Source: a virus (taxonomy: Duplodnaviria > Caudoviricetes). From it: a DNA stretch of 64,000 nt. The stretch is taken from positions 32,001 to 96,000 of IMG/VR virus record IMGVR_UViG_3300042275_000327, one strand, 5' to 3'. Below the pieces are notes generated by a model. It was not told where the DNA came from. It made no database searches and was given only the letters and a program-made list of their open reading frames with translations. Shown here one piece after another: positions 17,918 through 49,347 of the stretch. Both the position numbers and the translations under genes were made by a program. The stretch's first letter is position 1; the number at the start of each line of letters is the position of its first letter.

Positions 17918-18451
17918 CTAAGCTTCTGATCCAGGAATACACTTCACAAAAGAAAGTGTAACTGAGACATTCAATACTTCTCCAGTACTTGTCTGATCAA
18001 AAGATACACTACCTAGATTCTTGATCCAAGCATTTGTAAACTTCCAGCCTTTATAAGTGACAGTACCATTAGAATCCATAGGAAATACTGAGAAGTTTGT
18101 TCTCAAAGAAGACGAGGCAGTAAGAGGACTTACATCTTCTGCTACTGCTCCAGTATCATCATTTCCTATCAACTGTTTCCAGGTCATTAGCTCATCATAG
18201 ATAGTCCAATATTTATCTACTCTGAATGTGAATGTGAATTCTTTTGGAGTAGTAATATTTCCTTTTGGTTTTTCAAATTCCTGAGTCTTGTAATGAACAA
18301 CATAAGAGTCTTGAGAAAACTCAGGAATATCAAAATTAGAAATTCTAAATTGGAGTGCTTCTGCATTTGCCATGAAAGAAAGAGGTTCAAATACAATCAT
18401 TCCTTCATTATCTACTGCATCATCACCCATCTTAAAGGCAATATCAAGCAT
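17918..18451 (-). CDS. Tail tube protein (gp19-like)
   Basis: FTFTFRVDKYWTIY...W, WKFTNAWIKNLGSVSFD; directly after sheath. Confidence 0.8.
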   Translation of the reverse strand: MLDIAFKMGDDAVDNEGMIVFEPLSFMANAEALQFRISNFDIPEFSQDSYVVHYKTQEFEKPKGNITTPKEFTFTFRVDKYWTIYDELMTWKQLIGNDDTGAVAEDVSPLTASSSLRTNFSVFPMDSNGTVTYKGWKFTNAWIKNLGSVSFDQTSTGEVLNVSVTLSFVKCIPGSEA

Positions 18452-18675
18452 TATTTCTTCCCCTTTTTCTTCTCTTCCATATCATCCTCAGAGTCATCGT
18501 CGTCTTCTTTCTCTTCAGGATCTTCTTTGTCTTCTTCGTCATCAGATTCTTTCTTCTTAGCTTCGAAAACCTCGATCTTATCACCTTTTTCAAGAATGAT
18601 ATTAGTCCCAGGAATCCTCACTTCTTCTTCAATGACCAAGATAGTTCCTTCTTCTTTCTTTTCTTCTATACGCAT
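18451..18675 (-). CDS. Small acidic protein carrying EKGDKI motif
   Basis: AGGAG RBS; IEEEVRIPGTNIILEKGDKIEV followed by D/E/K low-complexity tail. Confidence 0.75.
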   Translation of the reverse strand: MRIEEKKEEGTILVIEEEVRIPGTNIILEKGDKIEVFEAKKKESDDEEDKEDPEEKEDDDDSEDDMEEKKKGKK

Positions 18676-18688
18676 TTTCTATTTCTCC

Positions 18689-20542
18689 TTATTCAAACAT
18701 TTCTTCTACAGATGAAGTTTGTGGTGTATTGATAAAAGTAAACACAAGAGTTCTAGATTTCGGAGTAACTTTTACACTCACATCCAACCTGAATTCCTCT
18801 CTTGCTCTTACTTCATCATTGTTGTTTTCGCTATCACATTTTACATAATATGAATCTATCACATTCAGAGGAGCAACTGTCATAGGCTGAAGAATAGACT
18901 CAGTCTTAGTTCTGACAATGTTTCTATGGATTGTATCATTCAGTTTTACAATCTGATACGGAAGAACTTGAGAAGTAATATTTTTCAGAATGTAATCAGC
19001 AATCATAGAATAATCACTGAATGAGTAATCACTAAGTTCAGCAAGAGAGGTTCTTCTTGAAACAATCATAGCTCCATAAGATGGATCATATACAATAGGA
19101 TTGATCCTAGCTTCGTCCATAAGTTGAAGATTTGCTTCAGAAGGATCATAGATCGATCTTATATATCTTCCACTTGTCAGCTGTCCACCAACTCCATTCT
19201 CATTGATCCAAGCTACAGACAAACCACCAAAGGCATTTACCCAAGAGTCTGCATAGTTTTTAGCAATCTCTCCCATAGGAGTCCAGACAACATTTCCTTT
19301 CTTACTATAGAGATTGTTCATCTCAAACCATCCCCAGAAATAACTGAATCCTCTATCCTGAACTCCAAGAGAAGTCTCAATAGTTGTTGATTCATCAGCA
19401 TTTGCCATTGGGAGTAAGAATCTAGAATATTTCTGATAAGTATCTCTTAATTCTTTCATCAAAGTAGGAACATCTGAATCTAGAGTAGCATCAAAGAATA
19501 CATCTGCATAATAGGTTCTGAAAGATTTAAAATAGTTGTATCCAGTTGTCACATCAAGATCAGAGATATCTCTACTTCCACCTGAAAGAGTTACATAAGA
19601 AGTTCCTTCCTCAAATGTAGTGAAATCAGCTCCACCTTCTACATGAGCAATGAAGAAATCATGATTTTTAAAAACTGTTGAAGTATCAATTATCTGTCCA
19701 AATCCATTAGTTGCTCCAGGAACAATACTAAATTCAATAGGAGAATTATTATTTGCATTATAAGTTCCATATGAATTCTTATTCTGGAAATACAGCTTGA
19801 AAGCTCCTGCTCCTTCAGATTCTACCATTGCCTTGATGTAAGCACTTCCAGCACCAACTGTAGTGAGCATACAATAATAGTCAGATAGATCTAGAGTGAA
19901 TTGAACAGTAATATCATCTGTAGTTTCTACTGCAAATTCAGTATCAAAAGTGATCTGAACAACACCAGTAGCACTATCATAAATATTTGTTTCGATAGCA
20001 TCAAGAGGAGTTCCAGTGAAAGTATCTTCTGTATTAGTGATTCCTTCTATAGCAACACCATTCTGAAGAATCTGCATTGACTCAACCACATACTCATCAG
20101 CCCAAGAATCAGTCTGACCAGAATAAGCTTTGGTGCCTTCAACAGAAGTAAGCTTCTTGTAAAAAGTAACAGAGCTCAAATCTGTTACAGGATTAATTCC
20201 TTTGAATCCATCAGTCACTGCTCTATAGCCTGGAGTTGCAGGATCACCAGAAGATCCAGGACCTATCAGTAAAGCTGAATGATATCCATCAAGGGATGGA
20301 GAAGATATCCAAATAGGATATGATTTGTTATATTCAATTGCTTCCAATAGATCAGGATTGTTTTTTGTAGGCTCTCCTAATAGACTTAGAATCCTCTGAG
20401 TTTCTCCCTTAGCAAAGAGAACAGGCTTCTCTAAGCTTCTTTCAGCTCTGACAACAGTAGCTCCTGTTCCAGTGCCTGCAGATGGAAGAGACTTCTGGCT
20501 TCTATTATCTAGAATTGTTGATATTCGCCATGAATTTGACAT
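18689..20542 (-). CDS. Tail sheath protein (gp18-like)
   Basis: RINPI, VKCDSENN, VSVKVTP C-terminal sheath motifs. Confidence 0.9.
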   Translation of the reverse strand: MSNSWRISTILDNRSQKSLPSAGTGTGATVVRAERSLEKPVLFAKGETQRILSLLGEPTKNNPDLLEAIEYNKSYPIWISSPSLDGYHSALLIGPGSSGDPATPGYRAVTDGFKGINPVTDLSSVTFYKKLTSVEGTKAYSGQTDSWADEYVVESMQILQNGVAIEGITNTEDTFTGTPLDAIETNIYDSATGVVQITFDTEFAVETTDDITVQFTLDLSDYYCMLTTVGAGSAYIKAMVESEGAGAFKLYFQNKNSYGTYNANNNSPIEFSIVPGATNGFGQIIDTSTVFKNHDFFIAHVEGGADFTTFEEGTSYVTLSGGSRDISDLDVTTGYNYFKSFRTYYADVFFDATLDSDVPTLMKELRDTYQKYSRFLLPMANADESTTIETSLGVQDRGFSYFWGWFEMNNLYSKKGNVVWTPMGEIAKNYADSWVNAFGGLSVAWINENGVGGQLTSGRYIRSIYDPSEANLQLMDEARINPIVYDPSYGAMIVSRRTSLAELSDYSFSDYSMIADYILKNITSQVLPYQIVKLNDTIHRNIVRTKTESILQPMTVAPLNVIDSYYVKCDSENNNDEVRAREEFRLDVSVKVTPKSRTLVFTFINTPQTSSVEEMFE

Positions 20543-20580
20543 ACTATTTTAGTCTCCTTCGAAATTTAATTCGGTCTTTA

Positions 20581-20593
20581 TAATTAAATAGTT
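20581..20593 (-). promoter_or_regulatory. Late promoter motif copy (sheath-tube operon)
   Basis: Minus strand AACTATTTAATTA. Confidence 0.65.
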
Positions 20594-20600
20594 ATACGAA

Positions 20601-21380
20601 TCAAGAAAAAGTTGTTTCTTCATTTATATGATCTATCACACCAGAAAGAAGTGTATCATAGTCATCCCAGTCATGAATCTCTAAATCTTTTGACATAGCA
20701 AAAGAAGCAAGAATAGTTTTTGGAATCCAGAATTTCTCATCATCTGTTTTAATCAAATATGTATCTAAAGAAAAATTCAATCCTATCGTTCTGATCTTAT
20801 TCTGCTGTAACCAATCATCTTCACTGTATGTAGGACTATAATCTATAGAATTAAATGTAACATTTCCATAGTTTTCATAAATATTATCTCCAATCTGGAA
20901 CTTTGGTTTAATAAGAGTTTCCATCGCAGCTTGCCATTGTAATTCAGAAAAAGCAAATTGTATATCCATCTCTTCAGTGGAAAAATATGTTCCTTCATAG
21001 GAGATCCTTAAAGGAGACAATTTTATCTTCTTTTTAGATACCCAATCCATAATCCCTAGTCTTTCTAATTGATTGTTGTTGAGAGTCCTTTCAGTTGAAG
21101 AATCTTTTCCACTTGATGAGACAGCATAATTCATGAATGGCATATTGAGTGTATTAATTTGAAAACTAGAAACATCTGGATTTTTACTAGACTGCAACTT
21201 CAATCTTCTTCTAAAAGCATGTTCATTTGATGAATATATGATTCTATTTGGATCATTTGGAAACAGAAAAGATTGCAGATATTGATTTATTGCAATAGTA
21301 GAAGACAGATATACATTATAGAAATTAGATGTGTCATAATAAGATCGATTAAAGACAATCCTTTCTTTCTCTATGTTCAA
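20601..21380 (-). CDS. Tail terminator / sheath stabiliser (gp15-like)
   Basis: Directly upstream of sheath; LNMPFMNY...PLRISYE pattern. Confidence 0.55.
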   Translation of the reverse strand: MNIEKERIVFNRSYYDTSNFYNVYLSSTIAINQYLQSFLFPNDPNRIIYSSNEHAFRRRLKLQSSKNPDVSSFQINTLNMPFMNYAVSSSGKDSSTERTLNNNQLERLGIMDWVSKKKIKLSPLRISYEGTYFSTEEMDIQFAFSELQWQAAMETLIKPKFQIGDNIYENYGNVTFNSIDYSPTYSEDDWLQQNKIRTIGLNFSLDTYLIKTDDEKFWIPKTILASFAMSKDLEIHDWDDYDTLLSGVIDHINEETTFS

Positions 21381-21865
21381 AATATTACTCCAATTCTTAA
21401 TCCAATTGCAAGAGGATTTCCTGATAAAATAGTAGAAACTTGTATTTTTTCTAAAAGAACAATCCCAACATCTACTGAGAAAGTATAATTTGTTAGACCT
21501 GAGATCCCAACAGAAGGAGAAACAAATTTTGGTTTTGACTTCTTAGAAAGTAAATCAGATAAATCATCTCTATCTTTTATAGCATCTTTATAGAGATCAT
21601 CTAGATCAGACTTTTCTTGTTTTACTTTTGTATAATTAGATTTAAGATCATCAACAACATTCAATAGATCCTCATGATCAAATCTTTCTTCTAAGTAGAG
21701 CTTTGACATCTCAAGGAAAGCTTCTAATTCTGTATATCCTTCTGGAATTTCTACAATCCGAGGTCCTCTAGATGTTTCTATCTCATAACTAGAAGCAAAT
21801 AGATTGCTAACAGTAAGAAGAAAAATGAAACTAAAGACCAGGAAAAAATTTCTTAGCTTTTTCAT
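21377..21865 (-). CDS. Exported protein with signal peptide and coiled coil (possible spanin-like)
   Basis: N-terminal signal sequence, central coiled coil, C-terminal amphipathic beta strands ending in F. Confidence 0.5.
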   Translation of the reverse strand: MKKLRNFFLVFSFIFLLTVSNLFASSYEIETSRGPRIVEIPEGYTELEAFLEMSKLYLEERFDHEDLLNVVDDLKSNYTKVKQEKSDLDDLYKDAIKDRDDLSDLLSKKSKPKFVSPSVGISGLTNYTFSVDVGIVLLEKIQVSTILSGNPLAIGLRIGVIF

Positions 21866-22109
21866 CTCTATCCTCTTTTTTATCTAGATTATCATTTTTT
21901 ACTTCATCAATATCATCTATAATGTCATCTAATTCTTGTTCATCATTTTTTAAATCTTTTTCTTTGTCTTTAATATTCTTATCAGTTTTCTTTATCTCTT
22001 CTTTCTTCTTTTTCACAAGATCACTTAGATCAGAAGTGTCTCTCCTAAAAAGAACTGACAATAAGAACAACCCAATTGGAATCAGTATGTACCATATAAA
22101 TTTTTTCAT
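21831..22109 (-). CDS. Membrane-anchored coiled-coil protein (possible inner-membrane spanin-like)
   Basis: N-terminal TM helix then charged coiled coil; overlaps next gene. Confidence 0.5.
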   Translation of the reverse strand: MKKFIWYILIPIGLFLLSVLFRRDTSDLSDLVKKKKEEIKKTDKNIKDKEKDLKNDEQELDDIIDDIDEVKNDNLDKKEDRDEKAKKFFPGL

Positions 22110-23478: not shown

Positions 23479-23487
23479 TTAGCTATC

Positions 23488-25650: not shown

Positions 25651-25656
25651 GTTAGG

Positions 25657-26640: not shown

Positions 26641-26650
26641 ACGTCTCTCT

Positions 26651-33544: not shown

Positions 33545-33778
33545 TCAGAACAGAGAAGACAATAGATATAAGTCCTCTTCTCCAAACCAAGATCCAAACC
33601 AATCATCCTCTTGAGGAGTTCTGAATCTCTCAACAAACTCTTCAGGATCTACAATATCTAAATCGGAAAATAGGAGGATTTCTTCAATTGGTCCTTTATA
33701 GGAAATGACTTCATTCTTCACTTCATAAAAACCAACATCAAATCCAGAAACTATTTTCATAGAATTACAACCATCCAT
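33545..33778 (-). CDS. Hypothetical protein
   Basis: Small acidic ORF after protease; start uncertain (MKIVSG likely). Confidence 0.5.
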   Translation of the reverse strand: MDGCNSMKIVSGFDVGFYEVKNEVISYKGPIEEILLFSDLDIVDPEEFVERFRTPQEDDWFGSWFGEEDLYLLSSLF

Positions 33779-35480
33779 CTTTTATTGGAAGTGATTTTGT
33801 AGTCTCAACTTCTCTTTTCTTTCTAGGACTAAATTTCCTATCATAAGCAGATTCCGAAATTTCATAAAGAGGCTTGAGTCTCAGATGAGTTCTTTGTGCT
33901 TCCATGAGAGTTCTACATTTCAGAATGTCATTCTTGATTACAATCACAGATGGATTGGAGTACTCAAGATTTTCATAATATCTTAGAACCTCTTTATTAG
34001 CACTTTCCTCTATACTTTCCTCTTCAGTTTCTTCTTCCTCTTCTTGGACATCTTCTTCTACTCTTGAAGTAAGATCTTCAGTTGCCTTTTCAGACAGTTT
34101 AGATTTAAGTTCGATCACCTCTCTTTCTAAAAGTTCTTTTTCATTTTCAACTTTCTCCAGATAAACCTGAGCTTCTCTATATTCAGAAGCAGTTACCATT
34201 CCATTCTTTTCAGCCTGAACAAGATCGTACATCTCTTTCAGCTTCTTAGAATAGACCTTGAGTGAATCTAAAAGTTCTAGTGAGTCATTGAGTTTTTCTT
34301 CAAGTCCCTCCTTTTCTCTCTTGATTGATTCAATTTCTTCTTTTATGGTTTCGAGTTCATTAGGTTTTGATTCTTTTAAAACTTCTTCTTTTGTAATCTC
34401 TTCTTCAATCTCTTTCTTGAGATCTTCTGCAAATCCTTCTTCAAAATAAGAAAGGAGTTCTTTATACTGATCGATTCTTTCTTCCTGGCTTTCAAGAGTC
34501 TTAGCTCTATTGAAAGAAGACACCATGTTCAATCTAAAAGACTTAGACAGGAAAGACTCTTTCTTCTTTTCATCTTTATCTTTCTTATCTTCTTTCTCTG
34601 AAGGATTATTTACTTTCTTTTTACAAGAAGGACAATATCCAGTATTGACTAAGACTTTTCCACCACAATCAGGACACTTGAAGGTATCTGTTCCTTCTTC
34701 CTTTTTGTCCTCATCATCTTCTTCTGGTTCATCTTTCTTATCATCCTCAGATTCTTCTTTCTTGTCTTCGGAGTCATCCTTTTCTTTTTCTTCAGGGTCT
34801 TCTTTCTTATCTTCTGGCTCTTCTTCACAAGCTTTCTTCTTTTCTTCTAAATCTTCTAGATCATTATCTATCTCTTCATTAATTTTCATAGTATCTTCCT
34901 TTATTTCAGACTCCTCTTGATTTATGATATCCTCTTGAGAACCATATACTTCATATGATGGATTAAATACAAAATCAGCAACTCTTTCAAGCTCATAAGA
35001 ATCAGGATTGATAGTCTTTTTGTCTTCAAGAAATTCTCCAAAACCAGAAGTAGAAAGACCTACCTTTCCCCCAGCTTCAAGAATTTCTTTTACCATTTCA
35101 CCATGATCACCAATAAGATAAGCATCTGCAATTACCATGTCTTTTGATTCATTGAATCTAAGATTTCTCCATACACACCAAATGTCTTTTGTTGATCCTT
35201 CTTCTTGAGGATGATCCATCAATCCAAAAGTTGAAGAATCCTTCAATCTAGATACAGAATTCTTCCAAAGCTTTTCATTATACACTCGACCATTGAGGTT
35301 TTCTTTTCCAGGTCTGGATATAGGAAAAGTGTAAATTGCTTTTGCTTTGTATTCTACTTTTGGTTCACCTTTTTTCTCAACAAATACAGTTTGATCTGAT
35401 TCGTTTAAAAAATTAGATTCTTTATATTCGTTAGGTCCAATAATAGCAGTTTCAACTAGTCTTATCTTCATGAGCTTCAA
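33765..35480 (-). CDS. Prohead protease (gp21-like) fused to scaffold, with internal zinc ribbon
   Basis: NLNGRVY, GLMDHP, VGLSTSGFG, DFVFNPS; CPDC...CPSC; acidic coiled coil. Confidence 0.9.
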   Translation of the reverse strand: MKLMKIRLVETAIIGPNEYKESNFLNESDQTVFVEKKGEPKVEYKAKAIYTFPISRPGKENLNGRVYNEKLWKNSVSRLKDSSTFGLMDHPQEEGSTKDIWCVWRNLRFNESKDMVIADAYLIGDHGEMVKEILEAGGKVGLSTSGFGEFLEDKKTINPDSYELERVADFVFNPSYEVYGSQEDIINQEESEIKEDTMKINEEIDNDLEDLEEKKKACEEEPEDKKEDPEEKEKDDSEDKKEESEDDKKDEPEEDDEDKKEEGTDTFKCPDCGGKVLVNTGYCPSCKKKVNNPSEKEDKKDKDEKKKESFLSKSFRLNMVSSFNRAKTLESQEERIDQYKELLSYFEEGFAEDLKKEIEEEITKEEVLKESKPNELETIKEEIESIKREKEGLEEKLNDSLELLDSLKVYSKKLKEMYDLVQAEKNGMVTASEYREAQVYLEKVENEKELLEREVIELKSKLSEKATEDLTSRVEEDVQEEEEETEEESIEESANKEVLRYYENLEYSNPSVIVIKNDILKCRTLMEAQRTHLRLKPLYEISESAYDRKFSPRKKREVETTKSLPIKDGWL

Positions 35481-35504: not shown

Positions 35505-35517
35505 TAATATAATAGTT
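35505..35517 (-). promoter_or_regulatory. Late promoter motif copy
   Basis: Minus strand AACTATTATATTA. Confidence 0.65.
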
Positions 35518-35545: not shown

Positions 35546-37288
35546 TCATCCATTTATGACATTTTCCTTTTCAATGAATCTGAACATCTTATAAATTGGG
35601 ATATACTCATTCTGAATATATCTGCTACTTGATGTAAAATAGTGCCTTCCATTAGAGGTGCATTCTTTAATATCAAACTTTCTCAAAGATTCAAAATATG
35701 CTGAATTAACAATTGACTCATCAATCTTAGTTGTGTTCTCATAGAACTTGTTCTGACTTTCTTCAGGACTTTCCATTTGCTTTGCTAGAGCGTCAACAAT
35801 ATCATTCAGTATTTCTGGCTCTAAGAATGAGAATTTTGAGAAAAGATCTTTCACTACTTTTGGAGGAAGCTCTGCATCTCTCAATCCAAGAGCAGTCTTA
35901 ATATTGTCTATTATGTCATTAGCTAATCTTAGAGAATCTTGTTTCATTCTTTGTCTGTCTGAAGCTTCTTCTACAACAGGAAAATTCAGAGATAACTGGA
36001 ACTCAGTCATTTCTTTTTCAAATTGTCCAGTCATCAAGAAATGCATTCTTACTAGATGTGTCAGTCCTTTGAGGATTGCACTCTGAACTGTATATACAGA
36101 TCTTCCAAAAGGTTTGGACTGCTGAAGAAGAGACTGTCCAGAAGTTCCCCATCCACCTGATCTATCAGCAATTAGATATCCTTTTGGAATCTTAGTTCCC
36201 ATGATGAAGTTTTCTCTCAGAAGTTCTACGTCTGCAATATTTTCTACATTGACATTTGATTCAATTGTATCATGGCTCAATAGATCATCTGGTAACCAAA
36301 GTTGATCTCCAATAGCAAAATCATCTTTTGCCCTATTGAGAATTCCAGAATTCTGATATTCTATCTTAGCTTCATTAACTGCTTGCCATTTTTCTACTGC
36401 AGTCATCTCATCAGAGGTCTTTACAGTGAAAACTTCTGTTGGAAAAGAGAGAGCTCTAGTGATAGCCATAAGGCTCATTGAGGTTTTTAATTGTCTGTAT
36501 GGACCAATAAGATTAATTAGAAGAGGTCTTCCAAAAGGAAAGAATTCAGATTTTCTAGATTCTAATCGATAGTGGTTTATTTGCCAAGGATATACAAAAG
36601 AATCAGATCCTAAAATGAATCCAAAAAGGTAAGAGACATAACTCTTTGAATAGTCATAGTCTTTTTCATCCTTAATCTCTTTTATGAAATTCTCAATAGA
36701 GGATGTCTTTGTGAAAGAGAATCGCTTCTTATTTTCATATGATTTTTTTATTTCAGATAGCTTAAATTCTAGTCTATCTGTAACATCTCTTACATGAATA
36801 GGAGTTACTGAGATGATTCCTTTCTTGTCATCAAGTTCATTGACATCAAAAGAATCTCCATAAGCAACAAGATTGTAAGCAGTTTCTCTAACATATTCCT
36901 GGTCAATCTCCCACTGATCAAACAGAGCTTTGATCTCTTGTTCAACCTTTGGATTTTTTGCCTTTATTCCAATGAGATTAAACTGATCATCAGACTGAGC
37001 CACTTCATCTGCATACAGGTCAACAGAGAATGAAGCTAGAGGCTCATTATAAATCATATATTCTATGTCTTCATATCTTGCTTCTCTGTTCTTCAGAGTC
37101 TCAAGACGATCATTTGTTTCTTTTAGATACCAATCCCAAAGCTTTTTTGCTTTTGGAGGAAGACTGATTCCTTTTCCTGTCTCTTTGTCAACAGGATCTA
37201 TATCAACTTTTCCTATAACCTCTGAACTCTTTTTTGTACTGTAACCAAAGAAAGTTTGTAACCTTTTGGTCAATGATGATTCTGCCAT
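35546..37288 (-). CDS. Portal protein (gp20-like)
   Basis: LVAYGDSF, PFGRPLL...YRQL, IADVELL...KIPKGYL motifs; upstream of protease. Confidence 0.9.
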   Translation of the reverse strand: MAESSLTKRLQTFFGYSTKKSSEVIGKVDIDPVDKETGKGISLPPKAKKLWDWYLKETNDRLETLKNREARYEDIEYMIYNEPLASFSVDLYADEVAQSDDQFNLIGIKAKNPKVEQEIKALFDQWEIDQEYVRETAYNLVAYGDSFDVNELDDKKGIISVTPIHVRDVTDRLEFKLSEIKKSYENKKRFSFTKTSSIENFIKEIKDEKDYDYSKSYVSYLFGFILGSDSFVYPWQINHYRLESRKSEFFPFGRPLLINLIGPYRQLKTSMSLMAITRALSFPTEVFTVKTSDEMTAVEKWQAVNEAKIEYQNSGILNRAKDDFAIGDQLWLPDDLLSHDTIESNVNVENIADVELLRENFIMGTKIPKGYLIADRSGGWGTSGQSLLQQSKPFGRSVYTVQSAILKGLTHLVRMHFLMTGQFEKEMTEFQLSLNFPVVEEASDRQRMKQDSLRLANDIIDNIKTALGLRDAELPPKVVKDLFSKFSFLEPEILNDIVDALAKQMESPEESQNKFYENTTKIDESIVNSAYFESLRKFDIKECTSNGRHYFTSSSRYIQNEYIPIYKMFRFIEKENVING

Positions 37289-37297
37289 GTCTTTTCC

Positions 37298-37504
37298 TTA
37301 GAAGAAGTGTTTCTTTTTAGATGGTGATTTGTTGAAATTAAGATTAGATTCTTGTCCCCACTGAAATGGAATATGAAAAGCTGTTGTCCATACTCTGAAA
37401 AAAGTCTTTCCATCCTCTTCAATCTTAGATGGAATATCTTCTTTGATAGAAAGTTCTAATTCTTTTTCTTCACCTGTTTCTTCACATTTATATCTATAGA
37501 TCAT
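37298..37504 (-). CDS. FmdB-like ribbon protein (degenerate)
   Basis: MIYRYKCEETG...RVW; likely start at 37504. Confidence 0.55.
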   Translation of the reverse strand: MIYRYKCEETGEEKELELSIKEDIPSKIEEDGKTFFRVWTTAFHIPFQWGQESNLNFNKSPSKKKHFF

Positions 37505-37676
37505 AAAAATATTCCTCGTCATCATCTTCATACATGTCCATAACTTCCATTACTGCTCTAATTACTTGAGAATCAGAAGGAAGTCTCAGTATCTGTCCCT
37601 TTTTCATTATTACAGGAATATCAGGGATAAGAGTATCTTCTTCAAATGTAACTGAATTTAGATCTTTATTGTACAA
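37494..37676 (-). CDS. Small acidic protein with EKGDKI-like motif
   Basis: VTFEEDTLIPDIPVIMKKGQILRL; GAGGA RBS, TTG start. Confidence 0.6.
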   Translation of the reverse strand: MYNKDLNSVTFEEDTLIPDIPVIMKKGQILRLPSDSQVIRAVMEVMDMYEDDDEEYFYDL

Positions 37677-37689: not shown

Positions 37690-37702
37690 TAATTAAATAG
37701 TT
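37690..37702 (-). promoter_or_regulatory. Late promoter motif copy (portal operon)
   Basis: Minus strand AACTATTTAATTA. Confidence 0.65.
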
Positions 37703-40357: not shown

Positions 40358-40363
40358 AAAGGA

Positions 40364-42055
40364 TCAGATCATTAGCTTCGCCATAGAGACTAGAGCTGAA
40401 AGAGCAGGAGCTGGAATCGGAACTTTATCTGGATGTTGTTTAGCATTATCTAATAGTGTTTTGAAGTATATTTTATTTCCTATTAAATATTTTTCCATTT
40501 TTCCAGCAGGAGTATCTACAATAATACCACCATCATTAGTAAATCCAGAAACATGATCTCCAAAAATATGAGCTATGTGAGGAATCAAAATCTTTGAAAA
40601 CATCTTTGGAGGCATTTTAAATTCTTTCTTAGAGAGCTTTTCAAGCATCTTAGCTAGATCTAGAGTCATAACCCCCCAAATAGGAGAATTTCCAATCTCT
40701 CTTCTCATATCATGGAAAGCACCAATTATTTCTCTAGGATTTCCATATGTGGCATTTAGCTTATACATTCCGGATTTTTGCTTTCTAAGAGCTATTCCTC
40801 CAGTTGAGCTTCCAAAAAAGATCCATGAGTTAGCTCTTCCATCAAAATGTCCTCTATTCCATGAAGCTCCTGTTGCTTGTTTATATGAAAGTTCAAAAGT
40901 AGAAAATAAATCATCTTTTTCATTCTGTGTCAGAGAATTATAATAAAATGATTCATACATCTTAGTCAGAATATTCAACTGTATTTTACTCTCCTGTCTA
41001 CTTTGAAAAAAGTCAATAGGATCTTCTTTAGACATAATAGAGGTTCTATCATTAATATAGATTTCTCCTTTGTTCCAAGTTCCACCTCTCCAAGTCCCTC
41101 CCTTCCAAAGTCCATCTATCCAATAGCCAGAAAAAGTGCCTGAAAGAAAATTTCCATATTTCCAATTACCTGAAAGAAATTCACCTTTATGCCAAACACC
41201 AGATTCAAAAGTTCCTTGATTCCAGATATCTCCATACCAATGACCTTTTTTCCATGTTCCATCAATCCATTCAAAGGTTCCATCATCATGAATTTTAAAA
41301 GAAGCCTCTGACATCTTTGCTTGGAACAGCCATCTAAAATCTTTTTCTAATTTAGAAAGATCATAGTTATCAACTTCTATCCTAGTTACATCACCAGAAA
41401 ACTTATCAAGAGCAAATTCAGCAAGATTAGCTCGATTCAATACTTTATCAACTTTCTTTACAGGAAGCCATTCAGATATCAATTCACCTGTGCTAGAGTC
41501 TGTAAGAGCAAATTCATATGGAATAGCTGTTTCATGGCTGTAAAGAACAAGAACATTTCCATCATGATTTCCAGAAAAGACAATTCCTCTAACTCCTCTG
41601 ATCTGGCAGATTCCATTCTTAACATACTTTCTAACAAATTTATTCATTGCTACATCAGCAGAAAAAGTTGGAAGACTAAAAGTTTTTTCTAATTCATCAG
41701 ACCAATCATAGAGATCTCTAGGAATATCTAAAATGTCCCTATAGATTTTATAGTGTTTTATCAACTGTTCTCTTAAAGAGTATTCATTCCCAAAAACATC
41801 TTTTGCAACATTGTAGTCAAGAATCAATAAATTTTTAGGATTAATCTTACATTTAAGTAGACTATCTCCATAATGAGTCATTCTAGATCTTGTTTGAGAT
41901 GATAGATCATAGGTCAGATAAAAACCTTTTCCATAAGCATCTCCCCATCCTGGACGAAAACCTTCATCAATAATAGATTCGATATTTTCTTTTTTTGTTC
42001 TATGATAGGCAATATAAAAATTTTTTATTCTTGTTATGCTTTCTTCAATTCTCAT
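40364..42055 (-). CDS. Multidomain effector: H-Y-type ADP-ribosyltransferase, W-x-x-G repeats, C-terminal possibly GNAT-like domain
   Basis: AYHRT...GF...YGKGFYLT; WKKGHW/WNQGTF/WKGGTW repeats; leader MRIEE-S. Confidence 0.65.
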   Translation of the reverse strand: MRIEESITRIKNFYIAYHRTKKENIESIIDEGFRPGWGDAYGKGFYLTYDLSSQTRSRMTHYGDSLLKCKINPKNLLILDYNVAKDVFGNEYSLREQLIKHYKIYRDILDIPRDLYDWSDELEKTFSLPTFSADVAMNKFVRKYVKNGICQIRGVRGIVFSGNHDGNVLVLYSHETAIPYEFALTDSSTGELISEWLPVKKVDKVLNRANLAEFALDKFSGDVTRIEVDNYDLSKLEKDFRWLFQAKMSEASFKIHDDGTFEWIDGTWKKGHWYGDIWNQGTFESGVWHKGEFLSGNWKYGNFLSGTFSGYWIDGLWKGGTWRGGTWNKGEIYINDRTSIMSKEDPIDFFQSRQESKIQLNILTKMYESFYYNSLTQNEKDDLFSTFELSYKQATGASWNRGHFDGRANSWIFFGSSTGGIALRKQKSGMYKLNATYGNPREIIGAFHDMRREIGNSPIWGVMTLDLAKMLEKLSKKEFKMPPKMFSKILIPHIAHIFGDHVSGFTNDGGIIVDTPAGKMEKYLIGNKIYFKTLLDNAKQHPDKVPIPAPALSALVSMAKLMI

Positions 42056-43611
42056 TAGAACTTTTTCCTTTTGACTTCTCTACCATAGTCTTTCAAAAGT
42101 CTCATACTTCTTTCTTGCCACACACGATCTGGAGAGCCTGCTTGTCTAGCAGCATGGCAATAGGTAAGACAGAAATTGAAAGCACGATAGTCAATATCAT
42201 TTACTCCAGGCATGATTGCTTCCACAAAGTCATAAACATCTTTTCTCATTTGATCAGTAATTGAAGAGATATCCTTATAGAGATTAAAAAGATTCTCTTT
42301 AATGAGCTCCAGCATTTCTTCTTTAGTGAAGTTAATCTCATGCATTACTCCAGAAAGTCTACTTTTAATAGCTGAATCCATCTGAACCTTATTAGAAATA
42401 AAAATCAATTTAGAATCAAAATCAAAGGATTCGTCTACAACATTTTGAGATCCAAAAATTTTAACAGGCTGGTTGATTTCTACTCTTCTAACAGGCTTCA
42501 TGTCAAGAACTTTCTTTAGCAAATTCACATTATCTTCATTATCAAAAATAGAATCATTGTCATCAATAATTATTACTTCATTTGTTCTATATTCATAAAG
42601 AGCCCAAAGAACTCTTGAATAAGCAGAAAGTTTTTCATCAATAATTACTGGTTTTATTCCTTCTTCTTTTAGTACCTCTCTAATAGTCTGAGTTTTACCA
42701 GTTCCTGGTTTTCCATAAACTAAAAGTCCTGGAAGAAGCTTGTCACCTTGAGCAATTCTTCTTGTGTCATCTTCCAGAGTTTGCATAATCTGCTTTGGTG
42801 AGATATCCTGAACAGAATCCCAAATCTCTTGTAACTCTTTAGTAGGAAGAATAACCTCATTAGAAGATGCAGGAGAGACTGAAATCGAAGGAACAGTGCT
42901 AGGATTTACACCGAACTGCGGATTTTCTGAAACTGCTTGTTGAACATTCCATTGAAGAGCTCCAGCAGTAATTTTTCCTTTTCTTGAATTAAAGGTTACA
43001 CCAATATAATCTAAAAAAGGTCTTGTCATTTTATCATAATCAAATCTTGAACTTTGAATATCTTTCAGATAATTAGGATTATCAGTAAGCCACTGTGTGG
43101 CCATATCCTTTAATGAAAGTCTAGCTTCTTTTAAAGCAGTCTTCTTCACTTTTACAGACTCATCATATCTTTCAAACTCACCTGTGATATAATCAGCTAC
43201 TTGATCAATTACTTGAACAATATTGAACCCATTAAGATCCAGTCTTTCAGTAGGATAATCATCTGTATTTGAGTCATAAAAATCAATTGACTCAAGAAGA
43301 TCACTTTTTCCTTTTAGGAAATTAAGTCTAAATGCTCTGTTTGGAGAAATATAGCCAAAATAAGTATCATAGGTCTTCCCCTCAATTTTCATAGGAATAG
43401 CTATTGATGAAATACCAATTTTAAATCCTGTTCTTTTTGAAAGAATAGAGGCAATCTTATCAATCATCTTTGAAGCCATCCCTGCTCTAAATGCTGCTTC
43501 TTTTAATCTCTTTTTATAATCTTCATCAAATCTTTTTATAGAGATTAGATCAATCTTCTCTTTTACTTTTGGAAGATCTTTTTTAAATTTTGAAATATCA
43601 ACAATTTTCAT
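42055..43611 (-). CDS. AAA+ ATPase with N-terminal extra domain
   Basis: Walker A GKPGTGKT, Walker B IIIDDND, sensor FISN, arginine finger SAIKSR. Confidence 0.85.
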   Translation of the reverse strand: MKIVDISKFKKDLPKVKEKIDLISIKRFDEDYKKRLKEAAFRAGMASKMIDKIASILSKRTGFKIGISSIAIPMKIEGKTYDTYFGYISPNRAFRLNFLKGKSDLLESIDFYDSNTDDYPTERLDLNGFNIVQVIDQVADYITGEFERYDESVKVKKTALKEARLSLKDMATQWLTDNPNYLKDIQSSRFDYDKMTRPFLDYIGVTFNSRKGKITAGALQWNVQQAVSENPQFGVNPSTVPSISVSPASSNEVILPTKELQEIWDSVQDISPKQIMQTLEDDTRRIAQGDKLLPGLLVYGKPGTGKTQTIREVLKEEGIKPVIIDEKLSAYSRVLWALYEYRTNEVIIIDDNDSIFDNEDNVNLLKKVLDMKPVRRVEINQPVKIFGSQNVVDESFDFDSKLIFISNKVQMDSAIKSRLSGVMHEINFTKEEMLELIKENLFNLYKDISSITDQMRKDVYDFVEAIMPGVNDIDYRAFNFCLTYCHAARQAGSPDRVWQERSMRLLKDYGREVKRKKF

Positions 43612-43626
43612 TCTTTTTTATTCCTT

Positions 43627-44346: not shown

Positions 44347-44359
44347 AGCTATTCCTCTA

Positions 44360-44372
44360 TAGTAAAATAGTT
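44360..44372 (-). promoter_or_regulatory. Late promoter motif copy
   Basis: Minus strand AACTATTTTACTA. Confidence 0.65.
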
Positions 44373-44375
44373 ATC

Positions 44376-45440
44376 TTACACAGAAAAATAGTTTTTATTA
44401 TAATCCTGAGACTCTATAAGTTCTGACTCATCTAACAAAAATTCTGTTGATTCTTTTGCTGTCTCTATAGCATTCTTAATTGTATCTAATGAATTTTCTG
44501 GAGATCCTGGATCACCATCTTCTAATCTAGCTATCCAATAAGGCTTTTCCATAAAATCATCAAATTCTTTTATCATCAATCTACCTGCAGAATCAGTGTC
44601 AGAAAAGATGATCACATGTTCAAATTCTTTTAGCTGTTCTTTCTGTCGAGGAGTAAGATTTATTCCAAATGTTGTTGTAATATTCTTAGTAATATTTTGC
44701 CATATCCTAGGCATATCCATGATTCCTTCCACAACAATCAAAGGTTCTTTCTTATTAAGATTATGATAATTGAATAAAGAAGAAACTGATCCACCTTTAG
44801 GATACAATACTTTTGGCTTTGCTCTCTTTGTGAAGTCTCTTCCCTCAATAGAAATCAGATCTGATCCTTCATAGATAGGAATGCAAATTCTATTTCTAAA
44901 TTTTGTAAACTCTAGATATGGATCTCTGAAAGAATCTTTGAAAGCTCTACAAATTTCAACACTAGTACAATAGCCTATCTCAAAAGTTTCTAGAAATTCT
45001 TCTGTTAGAAATCTCTCTTTTATATAGTCATTTGCTAATTGATTCTTTGAAAAATCATAAAGTATTTTTCCACCTCTGATTCTCAGTTCTTTCTCAAGAG
45101 ACTTTAGTTCTCTGACTTTCTCATCTTTAGAAAAATAGGTCTTATCAACGATTCCTTTTTTATCCATCTCAAGATATTTGATAAGAGAAGTTCCTGTGCA
45201 TCTATAAAAGAAATAAGAAAAAGAACCACTAGCATCTCCTCCAAAGTCTTTGCATACTAGAGAATTCTTATAGAGTACTGCTGATGGATTCTTGTCTTCT
45301 CTAAATGGAGAAGAGAATAAGAAATAAGATCCTTTATCTGTAATATTTTTTGCTCCACATTCTAAAAGAAGAGACTGGACTGGGGTAATCTGATTGATGA
45401 TGTCATAGGTCAGTGTTTTTTCTAATTCTCTATAATTCAT
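44376..45440 (-). CDS. DnaG-type DNA primase
   Basis: SPFREDKNPS...DFGG; FRNRICIPI; TOPRIM VVEGIMD and DTDSAG. Confidence 0.9.
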   Translation of the reverse strand: MNYRELEKTLTYDIINQITPVQSLLLECGAKNITDKGSYFLFSSPFREDKNPSAVLYKNSLVCKDFGGDASGSFSYFFYRCTGTSLIKYLEMDKKGIVDKTYFSKDEKVRELKSLEKELRIRGGKILYDFSKNQLANDYIKERFLTEEFLETFEIGYCTSVEICRAFKDSFRDPYLEFTKFRNRICIPIYEGSDLISIEGRDFTKRAKPKVLYPKGGSVSSLFNYHNLNKKEPLIVVEGIMDMPRIWQNITKNITTTFGINLTPRQKEQLKEFEHVIIFSDTDSAGRLMIKEFDDFMEKPYWIARLEDGDPGSPENSLDTIKNAIETAKESTEFLLDESELIESQDYNKNYFSV

Positions 45441-45445
45441 ATTAT

Positions 45446-45988
45446 CTAGTCTACAAAAACTGTAGTGCTATTTATTCCTATAATCTCATTATCATAAATA
45501 TTCACTTTGAATCCTTCTTTTGTCTCAAATCTTGTATATCTAGCTGAGGATTCTTTTAGAAGCTGATCTGAATAATTTTCTCTTACATATTTCAAAAGCA
45601 AATTCTGTACCTCTACAAAAACTCTGACATCAGAATCATATTTCTTATAATGAGGAACAGGACTATATCCAAGAACAGTAACAACAAAAGCATGATTCTT
45701 TCCATCATCATAGATTCTATCTCTTCTCCAGTCAATCACAAGTCCTAAACCAGAGCCTTTAGAATAGATGACATAGTGACCTTTTTCATCATTATAATTT
45801 TTCATTATCTGATGCATTGTCTGAGCAATCATTAATTTATGTTTGTCTACATAAGCTTTTCTATTAGGAAAAATCCCTTGAATTGCTTTTTCTCTTTCAT
45901 AAGATCTCTCTATAGCATGATCAGTATCAGTCATAAAACGATCTCTATATCTAGCAAATGGCTTGTTTTCTTTCAGTAGAATTCTCAT
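45446..45988 (-). CDS. Hypothetical protein, possible RelE/BECR-like RNase fold, probable internal head protein
   Basis: TDHAIERSYER...FVVTVL; likely start MRILLKE at 45988. Confidence 0.45.
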   Translation of the reverse strand: MRILLKENKPFARYRDRFMTDTDHAIERSYEREKAIQGIFPNRKAYVDKHKLMIAQTMHQIMKNYNDEKGHYVIYSKGSGLGLVIDWRRDRIYDDGKNHAFVVTVLGYSPVPHYKKYDSDVRVFVEVQNLLLKYVRENYSDQLLKESSARYTRFETKEGFKVNIYDNEIIGINSTTVFVD

Positions 45989-46173
45989 TATTCTTTTATT
46001 CTCCATATAGACAAAAATTCTTCAGCATTAGTAGAAAGATGATTTTTCCTGTTAACTGAAACTTGTATTCTTTCTACTTCTTCAAATTTTTCTCTTATTA
46101 AGAGTATACTCATATCTTCTAAAAATTTTCTAGATTTTTCTTCAAGTTCAGACCAAAGTATTTTCGTATACAA
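45988..46173 (-). CDS. Hypothetical protein (start uncertain)
   Basis: TAATG coupling at 3' end; TTG start lies in the terminator T-tract. Confidence 0.35.
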   Translation of the reverse strand: MYTKILWSELEEKSRKFLEDMSILLIREKFEEVERIQVSVNRKNHLSTNAEEFLSIWRIKE

Positions 46174-46202
46174 AAAAGTCCCTGAATTTTACTTCAGGGA
46201 CT
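46172..46202 (-). terminator. Intrinsic terminator after major capsid gene
   Basis: 10-bp stem AGTCCCTGAA/TTCAGGGACT followed by T tract. Confidence 0.8.
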
Positions 46203-46220
46203 AAAACTTTAGAGAAAAAC

Positions 46221-47642
46221 TTAGATGTTAGTAAGCTTGATTCTCTGGAGATAGTTAGGTTGAAGAACCTTAGCATCACCAAAGTAAGCAAGACCAGTTT
46301 CTTTATACATCTCTTTGAACTCAAGTGTCTGAGTCTGATAAAGTGGGATCAAACTGCCAAAACTCACGGATACGTCTTCCGGAACTAATTCGTTCTTATA
46401 GATAGCCATGATCTCATCATTAGGAACAATAGAAGCAGGAACCTTGTAAACATCGATTCCATCCAATGTACCTTCACGATAAGCACCAACTTTTGGCTGT
46501 CTGCTAGAAACATCAAACCGTCTGTGAAGCTTGATCTGAGTGATAGCTCCAGGTCCACCAACCAACTTAGTGACTCCGCCTCTCTGTAGAGAATTATAGA
46601 TCAAGTCAGAAGCTTGGTCAATAGCCTTGTTGAAAGCTGTCATACGATCAATCTCAGGCTCACCAACAGCACCCTGAACATTGAAAGTTACAGGAGCATG
46701 TCCCTTTGCACTCTGGTAAGCTAGACGAATAGCATGGAAGTCAAGAGACTTCTTGAACTCATCAGCAGCACCACGAATAAGAGCATCTTCTGCGTCAATA
46801 TTGAGAGTAGTGTTAACCAACACTTCAGTCATCTTAGACCAGCTGACATACAACGGCCAAGGTTTTACTCTGAACTGATAGTCTCTAAGTTGCAACTCAA
46901 CTGAACCAATATCAGTGTAGTTGTTAGAAACTTCAGAATCATAGTGGTATTCAAGAGAAATAAGTCCACCAGAAGCAGGAGCAGCTGTGAAAGTAACAGT
47001 GTATTCACCAGTGGTGTAGTTGATAGTGTTAGTCCCAGAGGAATTGAGAAGAGCACCAGAAAGATTTCCAGCACCATCATCAGTAGCAATAGGAACATCA
47101 TCAACTAACAGTCTTACAGTATAAGGTCTGATAGGAGCATTGAGCAAGGTGTTGTCAAAAGCAACAGTAGAACCATCACCAGTACCAACAGTGTCAACCT
47201 CAATTTCAGAACCATACCTAAAAGCAGGTGATTCATGCATAACACCACCAGCAGTAGCACCACGTTTTGAAGCCTGATAAACAGGAGACAAGTAGTAAAT
47301 ACTATCTCTTGCAGTTTCCATAGCCCATTCTAAGAACAAGTCACCACGTACACTATTAGGATATCCAAGACGAACAATTCTCATCACATTTTCAGGAGTA
47401 GTTGCAAAGCTGTTAGAGATCTGAGTCTCAGTCAACTTACCAAGGTGATTCTCCTGGTTCTCAAGAATAATAGAAAGAGCACGTGCTTTGTTGACGTCCT
47501 TTTCCATGATCTTATCCATGTTCTCGCCGATCCCAGTTTTCTTTGACCACTTCTCAAAGAGCCGATCAGCATTTTCATTTCTCTGAGAGAGCATTTCATC
47601 TCTTTGCTCTTTCAGGATTGCTTCACGCATTTCTTTACGCAT
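46221..47642 (-). CDS. Major capsid protein (gp23-like) with inserted beta-rich domain
   Basis: EKWS...IILENQE...LTE motif; biased high-expression codons; likely start MRKEMRE at 47642 after GAAGGA. Confidence 0.9.
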   Translation of the reverse strand: MRKEMREAILKEQRDEMLSQRNENADRLFEKWSKKTGIGENMDKIMEKDVNKARALSIILENQENHLGKLTETQISNSFATTPENVMRIVRLGYPNSVRGDLFLEWAMETARDSIYYLSPVYQASKRGATAGGVMHESPAFRYGSEIEVDTVGTGDGSTVAFDNTLLNAPIRPYTVRLLVDDVPIATDDGAGNLSGALLNSSGTNTINYTTGEYTVTFTAAPASGGLISLEYHYDSEVSNNYTDIGSVELQLRDYQFRVKPWPLYVSWSKMTEVLVNTTLNIDAEDALIRGAADEFKKSLDFHAIRLAYQSAKGHAPVTFNVQGAVGEPEIDRMTAFNKAIDQASDLIYNSLQRGGVTKLVGGPGAITQIKLHRRFDVSSRQPKVGAYREGTLDGIDVYKVPASIVPNDEIMAIYKNELVPEDVSVSFGSLIPLYQTQTLEFKEMYKETGLAYFGDAKVLQPNYLQRIKLTNI

Positions 47643-47774
47643 ATTAAAATTCCTTCTTTTTGTAAACAAGATTTTGAGGGAGGGAACTTTAGAGGTATAT
47701 CTCATAAAATCTGTTTTCATGAGAAGAACTTTCAATATTTCATCTTTCATTTATGAACAGAGAAATAAAAAATA

Positions 47775-47800
47775 TCCCTTACATATATAATAGTAAGGGA
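47775..47800 (-). promoter_or_regulatory. Capsid gene promoter motif variant inside an inverted repeat
   Basis: TCCCTTAC/GTAAGGGA arms around minus-strand TACTATTATATAT. Confidence 0.5.
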
Positions 47801-47828
47801 CAATTTAAAAACCTGTTTTTCACAAATT

Positions 47829-48680
47829 CTATACTATTCCGAATCCTGTTTTCTTTTTTAGATATAGAAAAGCCTTCTCTATCAGAGACTTAATATAAAT
47901 TCTATAAGCAAGCTCTGTCAATTCAGAAAAATTCACTCTTCTATTTCTATTAAAAGCTTTTTCTAAAGCTTCATCAAAATATATCTTTGGATTGAACTTT
48001 GATTCAAAAAACCATTTTTCAATATCATTAATCTTGGACACAGAGAAATCTTCTTCATTGTATTCTTCTGGATCAAAAGACATCTCTATGTCAAGAAGAT
48101 CAGGATCGTCAGATACAAGAATGTAGTCCCCACGAAGAATTCTTTCTTCTATTATCTTATATGCATTATACTGACAATCAGTTAGAACATAATTAGGAAG
48201 ACCAGACTCTGGCTTATATGACATCAGAGCTTTCTTTACTGCTTTCAGGTAATCAGTTTCACTTCGAAAAGTTTTTTCTTCTTTGTAGATAGAGATCTTG
48301 TCTCCTTTCTCAATTATGAAAATACCTTCTTTCTGTCTTACTGGAAAATCATCAGAAACAACTAGACTATCTATGGCATCAGAAATAATCTCTTCTGTCT
48401 CTTTTGTTCCTTCTTTTGCAGAGGAATATTCTTCAGGATCTATATCAAAAAGTAATCTTTGAAATTCATGAACATGAACCTTTTCTTCTTGAGAAGTGTG
48501 ACTGAAAAGCTTTCCAATAACAGAAGAATCTTTACCTAACAAATTCGCTATTCTATTATAAAGATTGATAGCACTTTGCTCTGCTGAAATTCCTATTCTA
48601 AGAAAATCTTCAGCAGTAGCGTTATCTAGATCTAACTCAGTTATGGCTTGTAAAACAGACTCATAAAGATTCTTTTTCAT
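47829..48680 (-). CDS. Ferritin/rubrerythrin-like domain protein with EKGDKI motif
   Basis: AEQSAINLY...EEKVHVHEF...IDPEE diiron-type helices; IIEKGDKISI. Confidence 0.7.
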   Translation of the reverse strand: MKKNLYESVLQAITELDLDNATAEDFLRIGISAEQSAINLYNRIANLLGKDSSVIGKLFSHTSQEEKVHVHEFQRLLFDIDPEEYSSAKEGTKETEEIISDAIDSLVVSDDFPVRQKEGIFIIEKGDKISIYKEEKTFRSETDYLKAVKKALMSYKPESGLPNYVLTDCQYNAYKIIEERILRGDYILVSDDPDLLDIEMSFDPEEYNEEDFSVSKINDIEKWFFESKFNPKIYFDEALEKAFNRNRRVNFSELTELAYRIYIKSLIEKAFLYLKKKTGFGIV

Positions 48681-48777
48681 TTTATTTCCTATACTTCATA
48701 AAGACATTTTTCATTGCTGATTTAGAATCATTCTCTCTTGTATATCTATTTTTCTCATGGTCTTTTTTATAGTCCTT

Positions 48778-49347
48778 TTATAAATAGTGCTTTTTTATAG
48801 AATTTGAAAAGTTAAAAAATAACTTATAAAGATCTATAGGAGATAGATTATTATTTGGTCCATAAACATCTAATAAATATGAAAGAGATTTTTGAACTTG
48901 CAAAGAATCTATAAATCTATATTTGAACTCATCAAAAAATTTATCAAGATCTCTATCTTGAGGACCTTTCATCTGTCCTATATATTCTTTTAGATCTTTT
49001 TCTAAAACTTGAATCTTATCACCCTTCTCCAAAATGATTTTCTTTCCATCTTGTTCAATTACTACTTCTTCTTGAATTTCAATTATAGAATCATGTATAG
49101 AGAAGCTTTCTTCTTTAATTCCAAAATTTTTTTGAATAGAATCCCAGATATCTTTATGCTGCTTTTTCAACTTTGTATAGATAGGTCTATCACCTGTTTT
49201 TCCACTCTTTAAAGTAGAAGCCACCTTTTCAAAATCTTCAGGTGAGACAAAAGAGTAGCTACTCATCCAAGACCCTTCATCTTCTCCGTTATATTTAATT
49301 TTTTTAGAATCTCTAGCAGTATAGATTCCAGGTTTAAATTGATCCAT
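48778..49347 (-). CDS. Modular hypothetical protein with central EKGDKI motif
   Basis: IQEEVVIEQDGKKIILEKGDKIQV; AAGGAG RBS. Confidence 0.7.
   Translation of the reverse strand: MDQFKPGIYTARDSKKIKYNGEDEGSWMSSYSFVSPEDFEKVASTLKSGKTGDRPIYTKLKKQHKDIWDSIQKNFGIKEESFSIHDSIIEIQEEVVIEQDGKKIILEKGDKIQVLEKDLKEYIGQMKGPQDRDLDKFFDEFKYRFIDSLQVQKSLSYLLDVYGPNNNLSPIDLYKLFFNFSNSIKKHYL

Follow-up and report, generated by a model that had tools for sequence, protein, structure and literature searches.

We examine here a short protein module, about 30-36 residues in length, that recurs on otherwise unrelated small proteins of a tailed phage (Caudoviricetes) represented by the IMG/VR record IMGVR_UViG_3300042275_000327. 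The window, by which we mean the whole stretch of 64,000 nucleotides that was analysed, comprises bases 32,001-96,000 of this single-contig genome (147,626 bp, 33% G+C), and all of the genes discussed within it lie on the minus strand. An earlier reading of the window from its letters (hereafter the original prediction) had placed four copies of the module in the following genes, which are listed with the results of a search using a hidden Markov model (HMM) built from external copies:

18451-18675, minus strand: p74, 74 aa, with the module at aa 11-39 (about 18559-18645) in its short-loop PGT variant; external HMM E 5.4e-15
48778-49347, minus strand: p189, 189 aa, with the module at aa 88-118 (about 48994-49086); external HMM E 2.1e-15
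47829-48680, minus strand: p283, with a divergent module at aa 105-135 (about 48276-48368); external HMM E 4.4e-5
37494-37676, minus strand: p60, a doubtful copy at the head of the portal operon, in which KKGQ replaces the otherwise invariant EKGD

Since this HMM was built from 166 module copies from other phages and none from the present genome, circularity was avoided when it was searched against the six-frame translation of the 147.6-kb genome. Three of the four copies (those of p74, p189 and p283) were recovered in the genes named, whereas p60 was not supported: it returned E values of 95 and 14 in two HMM searches, and no match with the external-copy HMM. The best tblastn matches of p60 among the loci that we fetched are true modules (e.g. 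locus L051, 31% identity over 32 aa, E 0.011 in a small database), and p60 is possibly, at most, a decayed copy. Consequently, the suggestion that the module stands almost alone in two tiny proteins holds for p74, which consists of the module and a poly-acidic tail and is encoded between the sheath and tube genes, but not for the portal-operon copy. In the remaining two proteins the module does lie between unrelated domains, as domain scans and clustering of partner segments confirm. In p189, which heads a p189-p283-capsid gene block, it separates an N-domain (residues 1-80) from a C-domain (121-189), while in p283, encoded directly upstream of the capsid gene, it follows a ferritin/rubrerythrin-like two-helix N-domain (aa 25-93, Pfam Rubrerythrin E 2.2e-6) and precedes an unassigned C-domain. 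Across the whole genome there are 11 module copies in 9 genes, and 8 of these copies are situated outside the window, in a seven-gene tandem array (genome 119,941-123,732, plus strand) between an SbcD-like gene and a DNA ligase gene.

A profile search of 1.84 billion protein cluster representatives yielded 386 matches at E<=1e-3, and the family consists of small phage proteins, with the best 150 of the 386 matches all measuring 46-299 aa. One module is present in 141 of these 150 proteins and two in the other nine. In cultured phages, tblastn searches of 50,697 phage records with two versions of the module, and with the protease described below, gave no match. Among 185,579 prokaryote species genomes just 3 hits were obtained, all of them on short phage-like contigs that had been binned into metagenome-assembled genomes and that are syntenic with the present phage. 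The module is restricted to phages. A literature search for its motif strings returned nothing relevant. Below, the prefix L denotes fetched loci, G genomes of relatives, P family member proteins, and g genes of the present genome. Copy number per genome is 11 here and 7, 7 and 4 in relatives, and falls to zero in G004.

In an alignment of 170 copies the module centres on an invariant L-E-K-G-D-[KR]-I, with alternating hydrophobic and acidic positions on both sides, and its conservation ends abruptly 8 residues past the Gly. The consensus reads K-E-N-I-I-E-I-Q-E-E-V-x-I-(P-G-T-D or x-Q-D-D-x-K)-I-I-L-E-K-G-D-K-I-x-V-L-K-E, and the bracketed alternatives correspond to two loop variants: a shorter I-P-G-T-[DN], seen in p74 and in most IMG/VR copies, and a longer x-Q-D-D-x-K. 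Within the present genome the invariant residues are encoded by five different Leu codons, by both Glu, both Lys and both Asp codons, and by three Gly codons, while amino acid identity between copies is about the same as nucleotide identity, with the DNA being 52-80% identical. Given this synonymous variation at invariant residues, and the match between amino acid and nucleotide identity, the codon evidence argues that selection acts on the peptide rather than on a DNA repeat. A DNA-level repeat or mobile element was considered as an identity for the module and is ruled out by the same two features, i.e. the modest DNA identity and the synonymous variation.

The AlphaFold2 model of the two-module protein g122746 predicts each module as four short strands, with a predicted local distance difference test score (pLDDT) of up to 96 for the second copy. 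Since the flanks are poorly placed in this model (whole-chain predicted template modelling score, pTM, 0.29) while the modules score highly, the module is a confidently predicted beta unit that would be autonomous and not fixed to its neighbours. P0029, a natural protein of 84 aa that comprises two modules and a linker, was modelled with a mean pLDDT of 74.5 and a pTM of 0.53. The model of p189 stored in the ESM Atlas has a pLDDT of 0.45, and a fold search from it was uninformative.

We were unable to match the module to any known unrelated domain above threshold. Pfam and PHROGs hold no family for it, either among window proteins or among the 150 family members, a PDB profile search found nothing significant, and fold searches with both AlphaFold2 models returned no match at Foldseek E<=0.001 or VIA Z>=5. 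The one weak signal that recurs is SH3. It appears for p74 (SH3_2, E 0.096, 12.8 bits against a cut-off of 21.8), for g122746 (SH3_1, 20.1 bits against a Pfam cut-off of 22.9), as the best row of the PDB sequence search (an SH3 domain, below significance), and as the top rows of the Foldseek searches (SH3 domains, E>=0.27), with VIA giving Z 2.3-2.7 for SH3 rows and a best overall Z of 3.4. No SH3 family was found at E<=1e-3 among the 150 members. The likeness is moreover confined to approximately the N-terminal half of an SH3 domain: a local motif (L-x-x-K-G-D-x-I-x-V-L) resembles the SH3 diverging turn, yet SH3 domains are five-strand barrels of about 55-60 residues, whereas the module is conserved over about 36, lacks the second half and scores below the Pfam cut-offs. 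The module is thus SH3-like at most, and we do not class it as an SH3 domain. We conclude that it is an undescribed, phage-restricted and highly mobile mini-domain family, absent from Pfam and PHROGs.

A likeness of this kind invites one explanation that involves neither an address label nor proteolytic release, namely that the module is a general self-association unit, in which half of an SH3-like barrel (3-4 strands) pairs with that of a second copy, so that the proteins form late hetero-oligomers, possibly including a core body. The sub-threshold yet consistent SH3 likeness, covering roughly one half of the domain, is compatible with such pairing, as are the several proteins with two modules, the modelling of P0029 as one compact object, and the many copies per genome. 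However, the predominance of single copies tells against it, and it leaves unexplained both the head-gene position and the effector-type partners described below. We regard this explanation as unlikely, although it is the best placed of the alternatives that we consider.

Partner domains were surveyed by masking the module, retaining segments of at least 35 aa and clustering these with BLAST. The resulting 191 segments fell into 135 clusters, 106 of which are singletons, and partner domains have been recombined at the module: in P0059, for example, the p189 N-domain is combined with the g121400 C-domain. The variety of fusion partners that a portable module should display in relatives is therefore indeed present, and in shuffled combinations. 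Such shuffling, together with the occurrence of different partners in the same genomic slot, would also be expected if the stretch were a recombination cassette, kept mainly as a patch of DNA homology and encoding a peptide of little function. We consider this highly improbable, given that the codon data (low DNA identity with free synonymous variation) largely refute it and that the fold is predicted with confidence; we rather take the shuffling for a by-product. Internal modules were also considered as fossil gene starts, but Met is not enriched upstream of them (28% versus a background of 22%).

Few partners could be assigned, but several of those are of effector type. The present genome's g121854 carries an LPD11 domain (E 2.8e-21), and ART-PolyVal ADP-ribosyltransferase domains are present in two larger module proteins, one of which also has a Zeta-toxin-like kinase. 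These two polyvalent-type module proteins, each of about 500 aa, are both encoded inside arrays of small module proteins:

L045:912-2456: polyvalent-type module protein
L057:1216-2709: polyvalent-type module protein

One protein of the pair is arranged as an internal repeat (identified by eye), ART-PolyVal, module and tail, and the other as ART-PolyVal, module and Zeta-toxin-like kinase. ART-PolyVal and LPD11 were defined in the polyvalent proteins of phages and plasmids, for which packaging and injection are predicted (Iyer et al. 2017, PMC5512222), and the T4 protein Alt is a packaged and processed head enzyme with ADP-ribosyltransferase activity (PMC5512222; PMC5694885). Ferritin-like partners constitute another type: in a 280-aa protein of a relative (L002:10291-11133), a full Ferritin domain (E 4e-26) comes after the module. 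Ferritin-like cargo therefore occurs on either side of the module, as an N-terminal half-domain in p283 and C-terminally in L002, beside an HK97-fold capsid gene. We also observed in the window a 563-aa protein without a module (40364-42055, minus strand), the N-terminus of which is weakly PARP/ADP-ribosyltransferase-like (Pfam PARP E 0.006). A 578-aa protein encoded a few genes upstream of module genes in a relative (L003:2387-4123), with an N-terminus that by eye is ADP-ribosyltransferase-like, may be its counterpart.

The structural genes of the window, with reference to which the module genes are positioned, are as follows:

17918-18451, minus strand: T4 gp19-like tube
18689-20542, minus strand: tail sheath
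33765-35480, minus strand: prohead protease-scaffold fusion, 571 aa, the gene after the portal gene; phrog_207 head maturation protease, E 1.9e-11
35546-37288, minus strand: T4-type portal protein, Pfam Portal_T4 E 1.3e-16
46221-47642, minus strand (long open reading frame 46221-47750): major capsid protein, identified by phrog_138/1014 and by tblastn to annotated major capsid proteins

The capsid protein is just 22-27% identical to its closest cultured relatives. Its true start is probably Met37 of the long open reading frame (47642), judging from an N-terminal alignment in which the seven relatives all start with the equivalent M-R-K-E-M-R-E, with no conservation in the 36 codons upstream.

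In relatives, the capsid proteins of which are 47-65% identical to that of the window, the head genes are compact and follow the order portal, protease-scaffold, one to four module genes, capsid. This order is found in at least nine relatives (L006/L049, L007, L008, L024, L044, L050, L051, L052 and L054), and in L010 a module gene lies between portal and protease. In the window, p189 and p283 keep the slot directly upstream of the capsid gene, even though the portal and protease genes have moved away. Module genes nearly always occur in tandem, in arrays of up to ten (L059). A second recurrent site is near the sheath and tube genes (p74, L020, L022, L025, L060), and in L060 the sheath gene is directly followed by a module gene with a p189-like N-domain instead of the acidic tail of p74.

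G004 is a close relative with a genome that is 92% complete and a capsid protein that is 58% identical, yet it has no module copy. A head of this type can thus be built without the module, which suggests that the module proteins are accessory rather than core, and which agrees more readily with accessory cargo than with an indispensable component of the core. The slot between the protease-scaffold and capsid genes of G004 (L009, 9507-9809) holds a gene for a 100-aa beta-rich protein, possibly a decoration protein.

The slot bears on a further explanation, in which the module would be an anchor at the capsid or virion surface, plugging into the outer capsid or neck lattice and displaying interchangeable small domains such as adhesins or stabilisers. 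A position just upstream of the capsid gene is typical of decoration proteins, the module-free relative has its beta-rich protein in precisely this slot, the partners are mostly small and of unassigned function, and some module genes belong to tail or neck operons. However, the partners of ADP-ribosyltransferase, Zeta-like kinase and LPD11 type depend on a target in the cytoplasm and would serve no purpose on the exterior of a particle, and the conserved Glu site and gp21-like protease, described below, fit processing in the interior. Surface anchoring appears to us decidedly unlikely.

A 12-nt promoter-like motif, ACTATT[AT][AT]A[ATC]T[AC], connects the module genes with the structural operons. 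It has 13 matches in the genome versus 4.4 in shuffles, and all 13 lie 0-100 nt upstream of an open reading frame on the same strand:

49383-49394, minus strand: ACTATTTAAATA, ahead of p189
20581-20592, minus strand: sister copy, sheath operon with p74
37690-37701, minus strand: sister copy, p60/portal operon
35505-35516, minus strand: sister copy, protease
17798, 29358, 32250, 33452, 40333, 44360 and 53738, minus strand: further copies in the window
genome 119485, plus strand: outside the window, heading the tandem module array
genome 129935, plus strand: further copy

On the basis of its distribution, the motif is probably a late or structural promoter of the phage, and since it precedes both the structural operons and the external array, co-expression of module genes with structural genes is likely. 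The array itself is headed by a gene for a conserved 138-aa protein that starts M-P-S-P-Y-V and has an acidic C-terminal part (genome 119518-119934, plus strand; L001:2518-2934). This protein also heads arrays in L005 and L039 and is present in G002 and L022, but is absent from G003 and G004; given that G003 has 4 modules, its candidacy as an obligatory partner of the module is not supported.

The location of the array, which adjoins SbcD and DNA ligase rather than head genes, is one of several features that could instead indicate an adaptor that is never packaged, with the module binding a single host or phage hub protein and bringing variable effectors to it, and with the link to head genes reflecting late co-expression only. 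The invariant charged E-K-G-D-[KR] suggests a specific binding surface, SH3-like units typically bind peptides, and in a 133-kb relative (L026:9929-11551) the module lies at residues 21-46 of an AAA+ ATPase encoded downstream of a primase, i.e. in a replication-gene context. (The position of this AAA+ gene resembles that of the AAA+ gene at 42055-43611 in the window.) Conversely, SbcD adjoins the portal gene in L006, L010 and L024, so that the position of the array beside SbcD in the present genome looks derived from the head block. Moreover, the promoter-like motif that precedes the structural operons also heads the array, and such a scheme does not readily account for the recurrence of module genes between the protease and capsid genes. 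An adaptor of this kind seems to us as improbable as surface anchoring.

If module proteins do enter the head, a prohead protease would be the natural agent of their processing, and the 571-aa product of 33765-35480 looks like a protease-scaffold fusion, because a protease domain (about residues 1-190) is followed by an acidic linker, a zinc ribbon (264-290), a long Glu/Lys-rich coiled-coil and a conserved C-terminal G-W motif. A Pfam scan of the protease returned nothing at E<=0.01. The only solved structure matched by a profile of 8 protease orthologues is T4 gp21 (5JBL, E 0.0026), and the orthologues share invariant D-H-P and G-x-S catalytic motifs. On inspection of its sequence, the protease-scaffold protein carries no module. 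Its CxxC...CxxC zinc ribbon is found in none of the eight orthologues, and was rejected as a docking site since it is absent from all other orthologues, with or without modules. A 171-aa module protein encoded upstream of the portal gene in L008 has this ribbon as well, with 81% identity over 27 aa.

The original prediction had noted hydrophobic-x-Glu sites following the module, and this holds statistically: [ILVMF]-x-E at +7/+8 from the Gly closes 133 of 170 modules (78%), versus 4.8% expected from partner regions. The last conserved positions of the module are a hydrophobic residue (98%), Lys or Glu, and then Glu (55%), with the next residue most often being Ala, Ser or Asn. T4 gp21 itself prefers Leu/Ile-x-Glu. 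When aligned with 7 relatives, the N-terminal region of the capsid protein likewise displays invariant I-L-E (about residues 59-61) and L-T-E (about 70-72) sites. T4 gp21 removes N-terminal propeptides of head proteins, and propeptides of this kind are considered to direct proteins into the prohead (PMC5694885; PMC3012670). Both gp21 and its relatives in giant phages cleave behind the Glu of X-x-E motifs, with the giant-phage enzymes cutting at A/S-x-Glu (PMC5694885). The hydrophobic-x-Glu at the module edge would thus fit processing by the prohead protease.

Judged from sequence, we give an approximately even chance to the reading that the module is a folded capsid-loading (prohead-core docking) domain for changeable, non-essential proteins, able to act from any position in the chain and thus a functional analogue of the T4 capsid targeting sequence (CTS). 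Under this reading module proteins would be made late, and the module would dock them to the interior of the assembling prohead, so that the shell encloses them; the docking partner would most plausibly be either the scaffold portion of the protease-scaffold fusion or the capsid protein on its inner side. The T4 gp21-like protease would then probably cut at hydrophobic-x-Glu at the C-terminal edge of the module, freeing C-terminal cargo, and some cargo at least, namely the proteins with ADP-ribosyltransferase, Zeta-like kinase or LPD11 domains, would enter the host together with the ejected DNA. All four steps (docking, packaging, cleavage and ejection) are ones that we infer. The original prediction had likewise proposed recruitment of interchangeable cargo into the head; the varied partners, the lack of a match to a known domain, the head-gene slot, the gp21-like protease, the edge site and the effector partners speak for this proposal, whereas the portal-operon copy drops out of its support.

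A number of observations weigh against capsid loading. Of the 159 copies in the best 150 proteins, 97 are N-terminal, but 44 are internal and 18 C-terminal. No known cleavable leader is placed in this way, and cleavage behind an internal module would leave it attached to the domain upstream. The conserved hydrophobic-x-Glu may equally be the end of the last strand. Module proteins are mostly acidic (median isoelectric point 5.0), whereas T4 internal proteins are basic; the AAA+ partner in L026 looks non-structural, and the second recurrent site lies in tail operons. Furthermore, decoration proteins such as lambda gpD are also commonly encoded in the slot upstream of a capsid gene, and synteny alone therefore does not distinguish an internal from an external location. 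A plain oligomerisation unit or an anchor on the capsid surface is equally compatible with the data.

Comparison with known systems helps to define what would be new. The T4 CTS is carried by the internal proteins IPI-III and by Alt and is removed by gp21 (Mullaney and Black 1996, as that work is cited in PMC5694885 and PMC3012670), and the T4 internal proteins are highly diverse, with only the CTS conserved among them (PMC3012670). The module resembles it in being one shared element on unrelated, fast-changing accessory proteins, in occurring in a phage with T4-type head machinery (a Portal_T4 portal and a gp21-like protease), in ending, from its sequence, in hydrophobic-x-Glu, and in having an ADP-ribosyltransferase, as in Alt, among its cargo types. 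However, the CTS is a linear leader of 10-20 residues at the extreme N-terminus, whereas the module has 30-36 residues, a predicted beta fold and no sequence similarity to the CTS, and may be N-terminal, internal, C-terminal or present twice in proteins that are mostly acidic. The propeptides of inner-head and ejection proteins of SPN3US and phiKZ, thought to target the prohead and cut at X-x-Glu by a gp21-related protease (PMC5694885), are similar to the module in being larger than a short leader and in belonging to paralogous families, but they are N-terminal, run to more than 100 residues and differ from one paralogue group to the next, while the module is compact and common to more than 100 unrelated partners. 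The module therefore differs from the published T4 and giant-phage signals in its compact predicted fold, in its occurrence at any position and in its more than 100 partner families.

Two further systems follow a related logic. MuF polymorphic toxins and polyvalent proteins (PMC5512222) combine a folded head-incorporation domain with variable effectors, and share ART-PolyVal, Zeta-toxin-like and LPD11 domains with the module proteins. They are nonetheless giant and multidomain, whereas module proteins are mostly tiny, single-domain cargo encoded in tandem arrays, and neither a MuF nor a portal domain was matched in Pfam among the 150 members or 10 larger module proteins. Encapsulin cargo loading offers a parallel in its tag-plus-cargo logic, and in the tagged ferritin-like protein encoded beside an HK97-fold shell gene. 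Encapsulin tags, however, are short, linear and usually C-terminal, and serve a shell without a portal, while the module is predicted to be folded and belongs to a tailed-phage head with portal, protease, scaffold, sheath and tube.

In a bolder form, to which we give somewhat less than an even chance, the module may be an SH3-like half-domain of about 30 residues that serves as the universal, any-position capsid-loading adaptor of a T4-related phage lineage, clipped at its own C-terminal Glu by the gp21-like protease. If so, the heads of this lineage would receive a fast-changing arsenal (ADP-ribosyltransferases, kinases, ferritin-like proteins and more than 100 uncharacterised small domains), the module would constitute a second class of capsid-targeting signal, different in structure from the linear CTS of T4, and the injected proteome could be read from sequence. 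If the module is a loading domain at all, each of the 386 clusters becomes a candidate virion-packaged, host-injected factor, and the means by which an uncultured phage lineage counters defences and takes over its host could be approached from sequence alone. Even with some other function, the module merits a family entry. Were it to load capsids, it could be reused as a packaging tag, and capsid targeting by a small folded domain located anywhere in a protein would bear both on phage evolution and on the packaging of proteins into phage heads.

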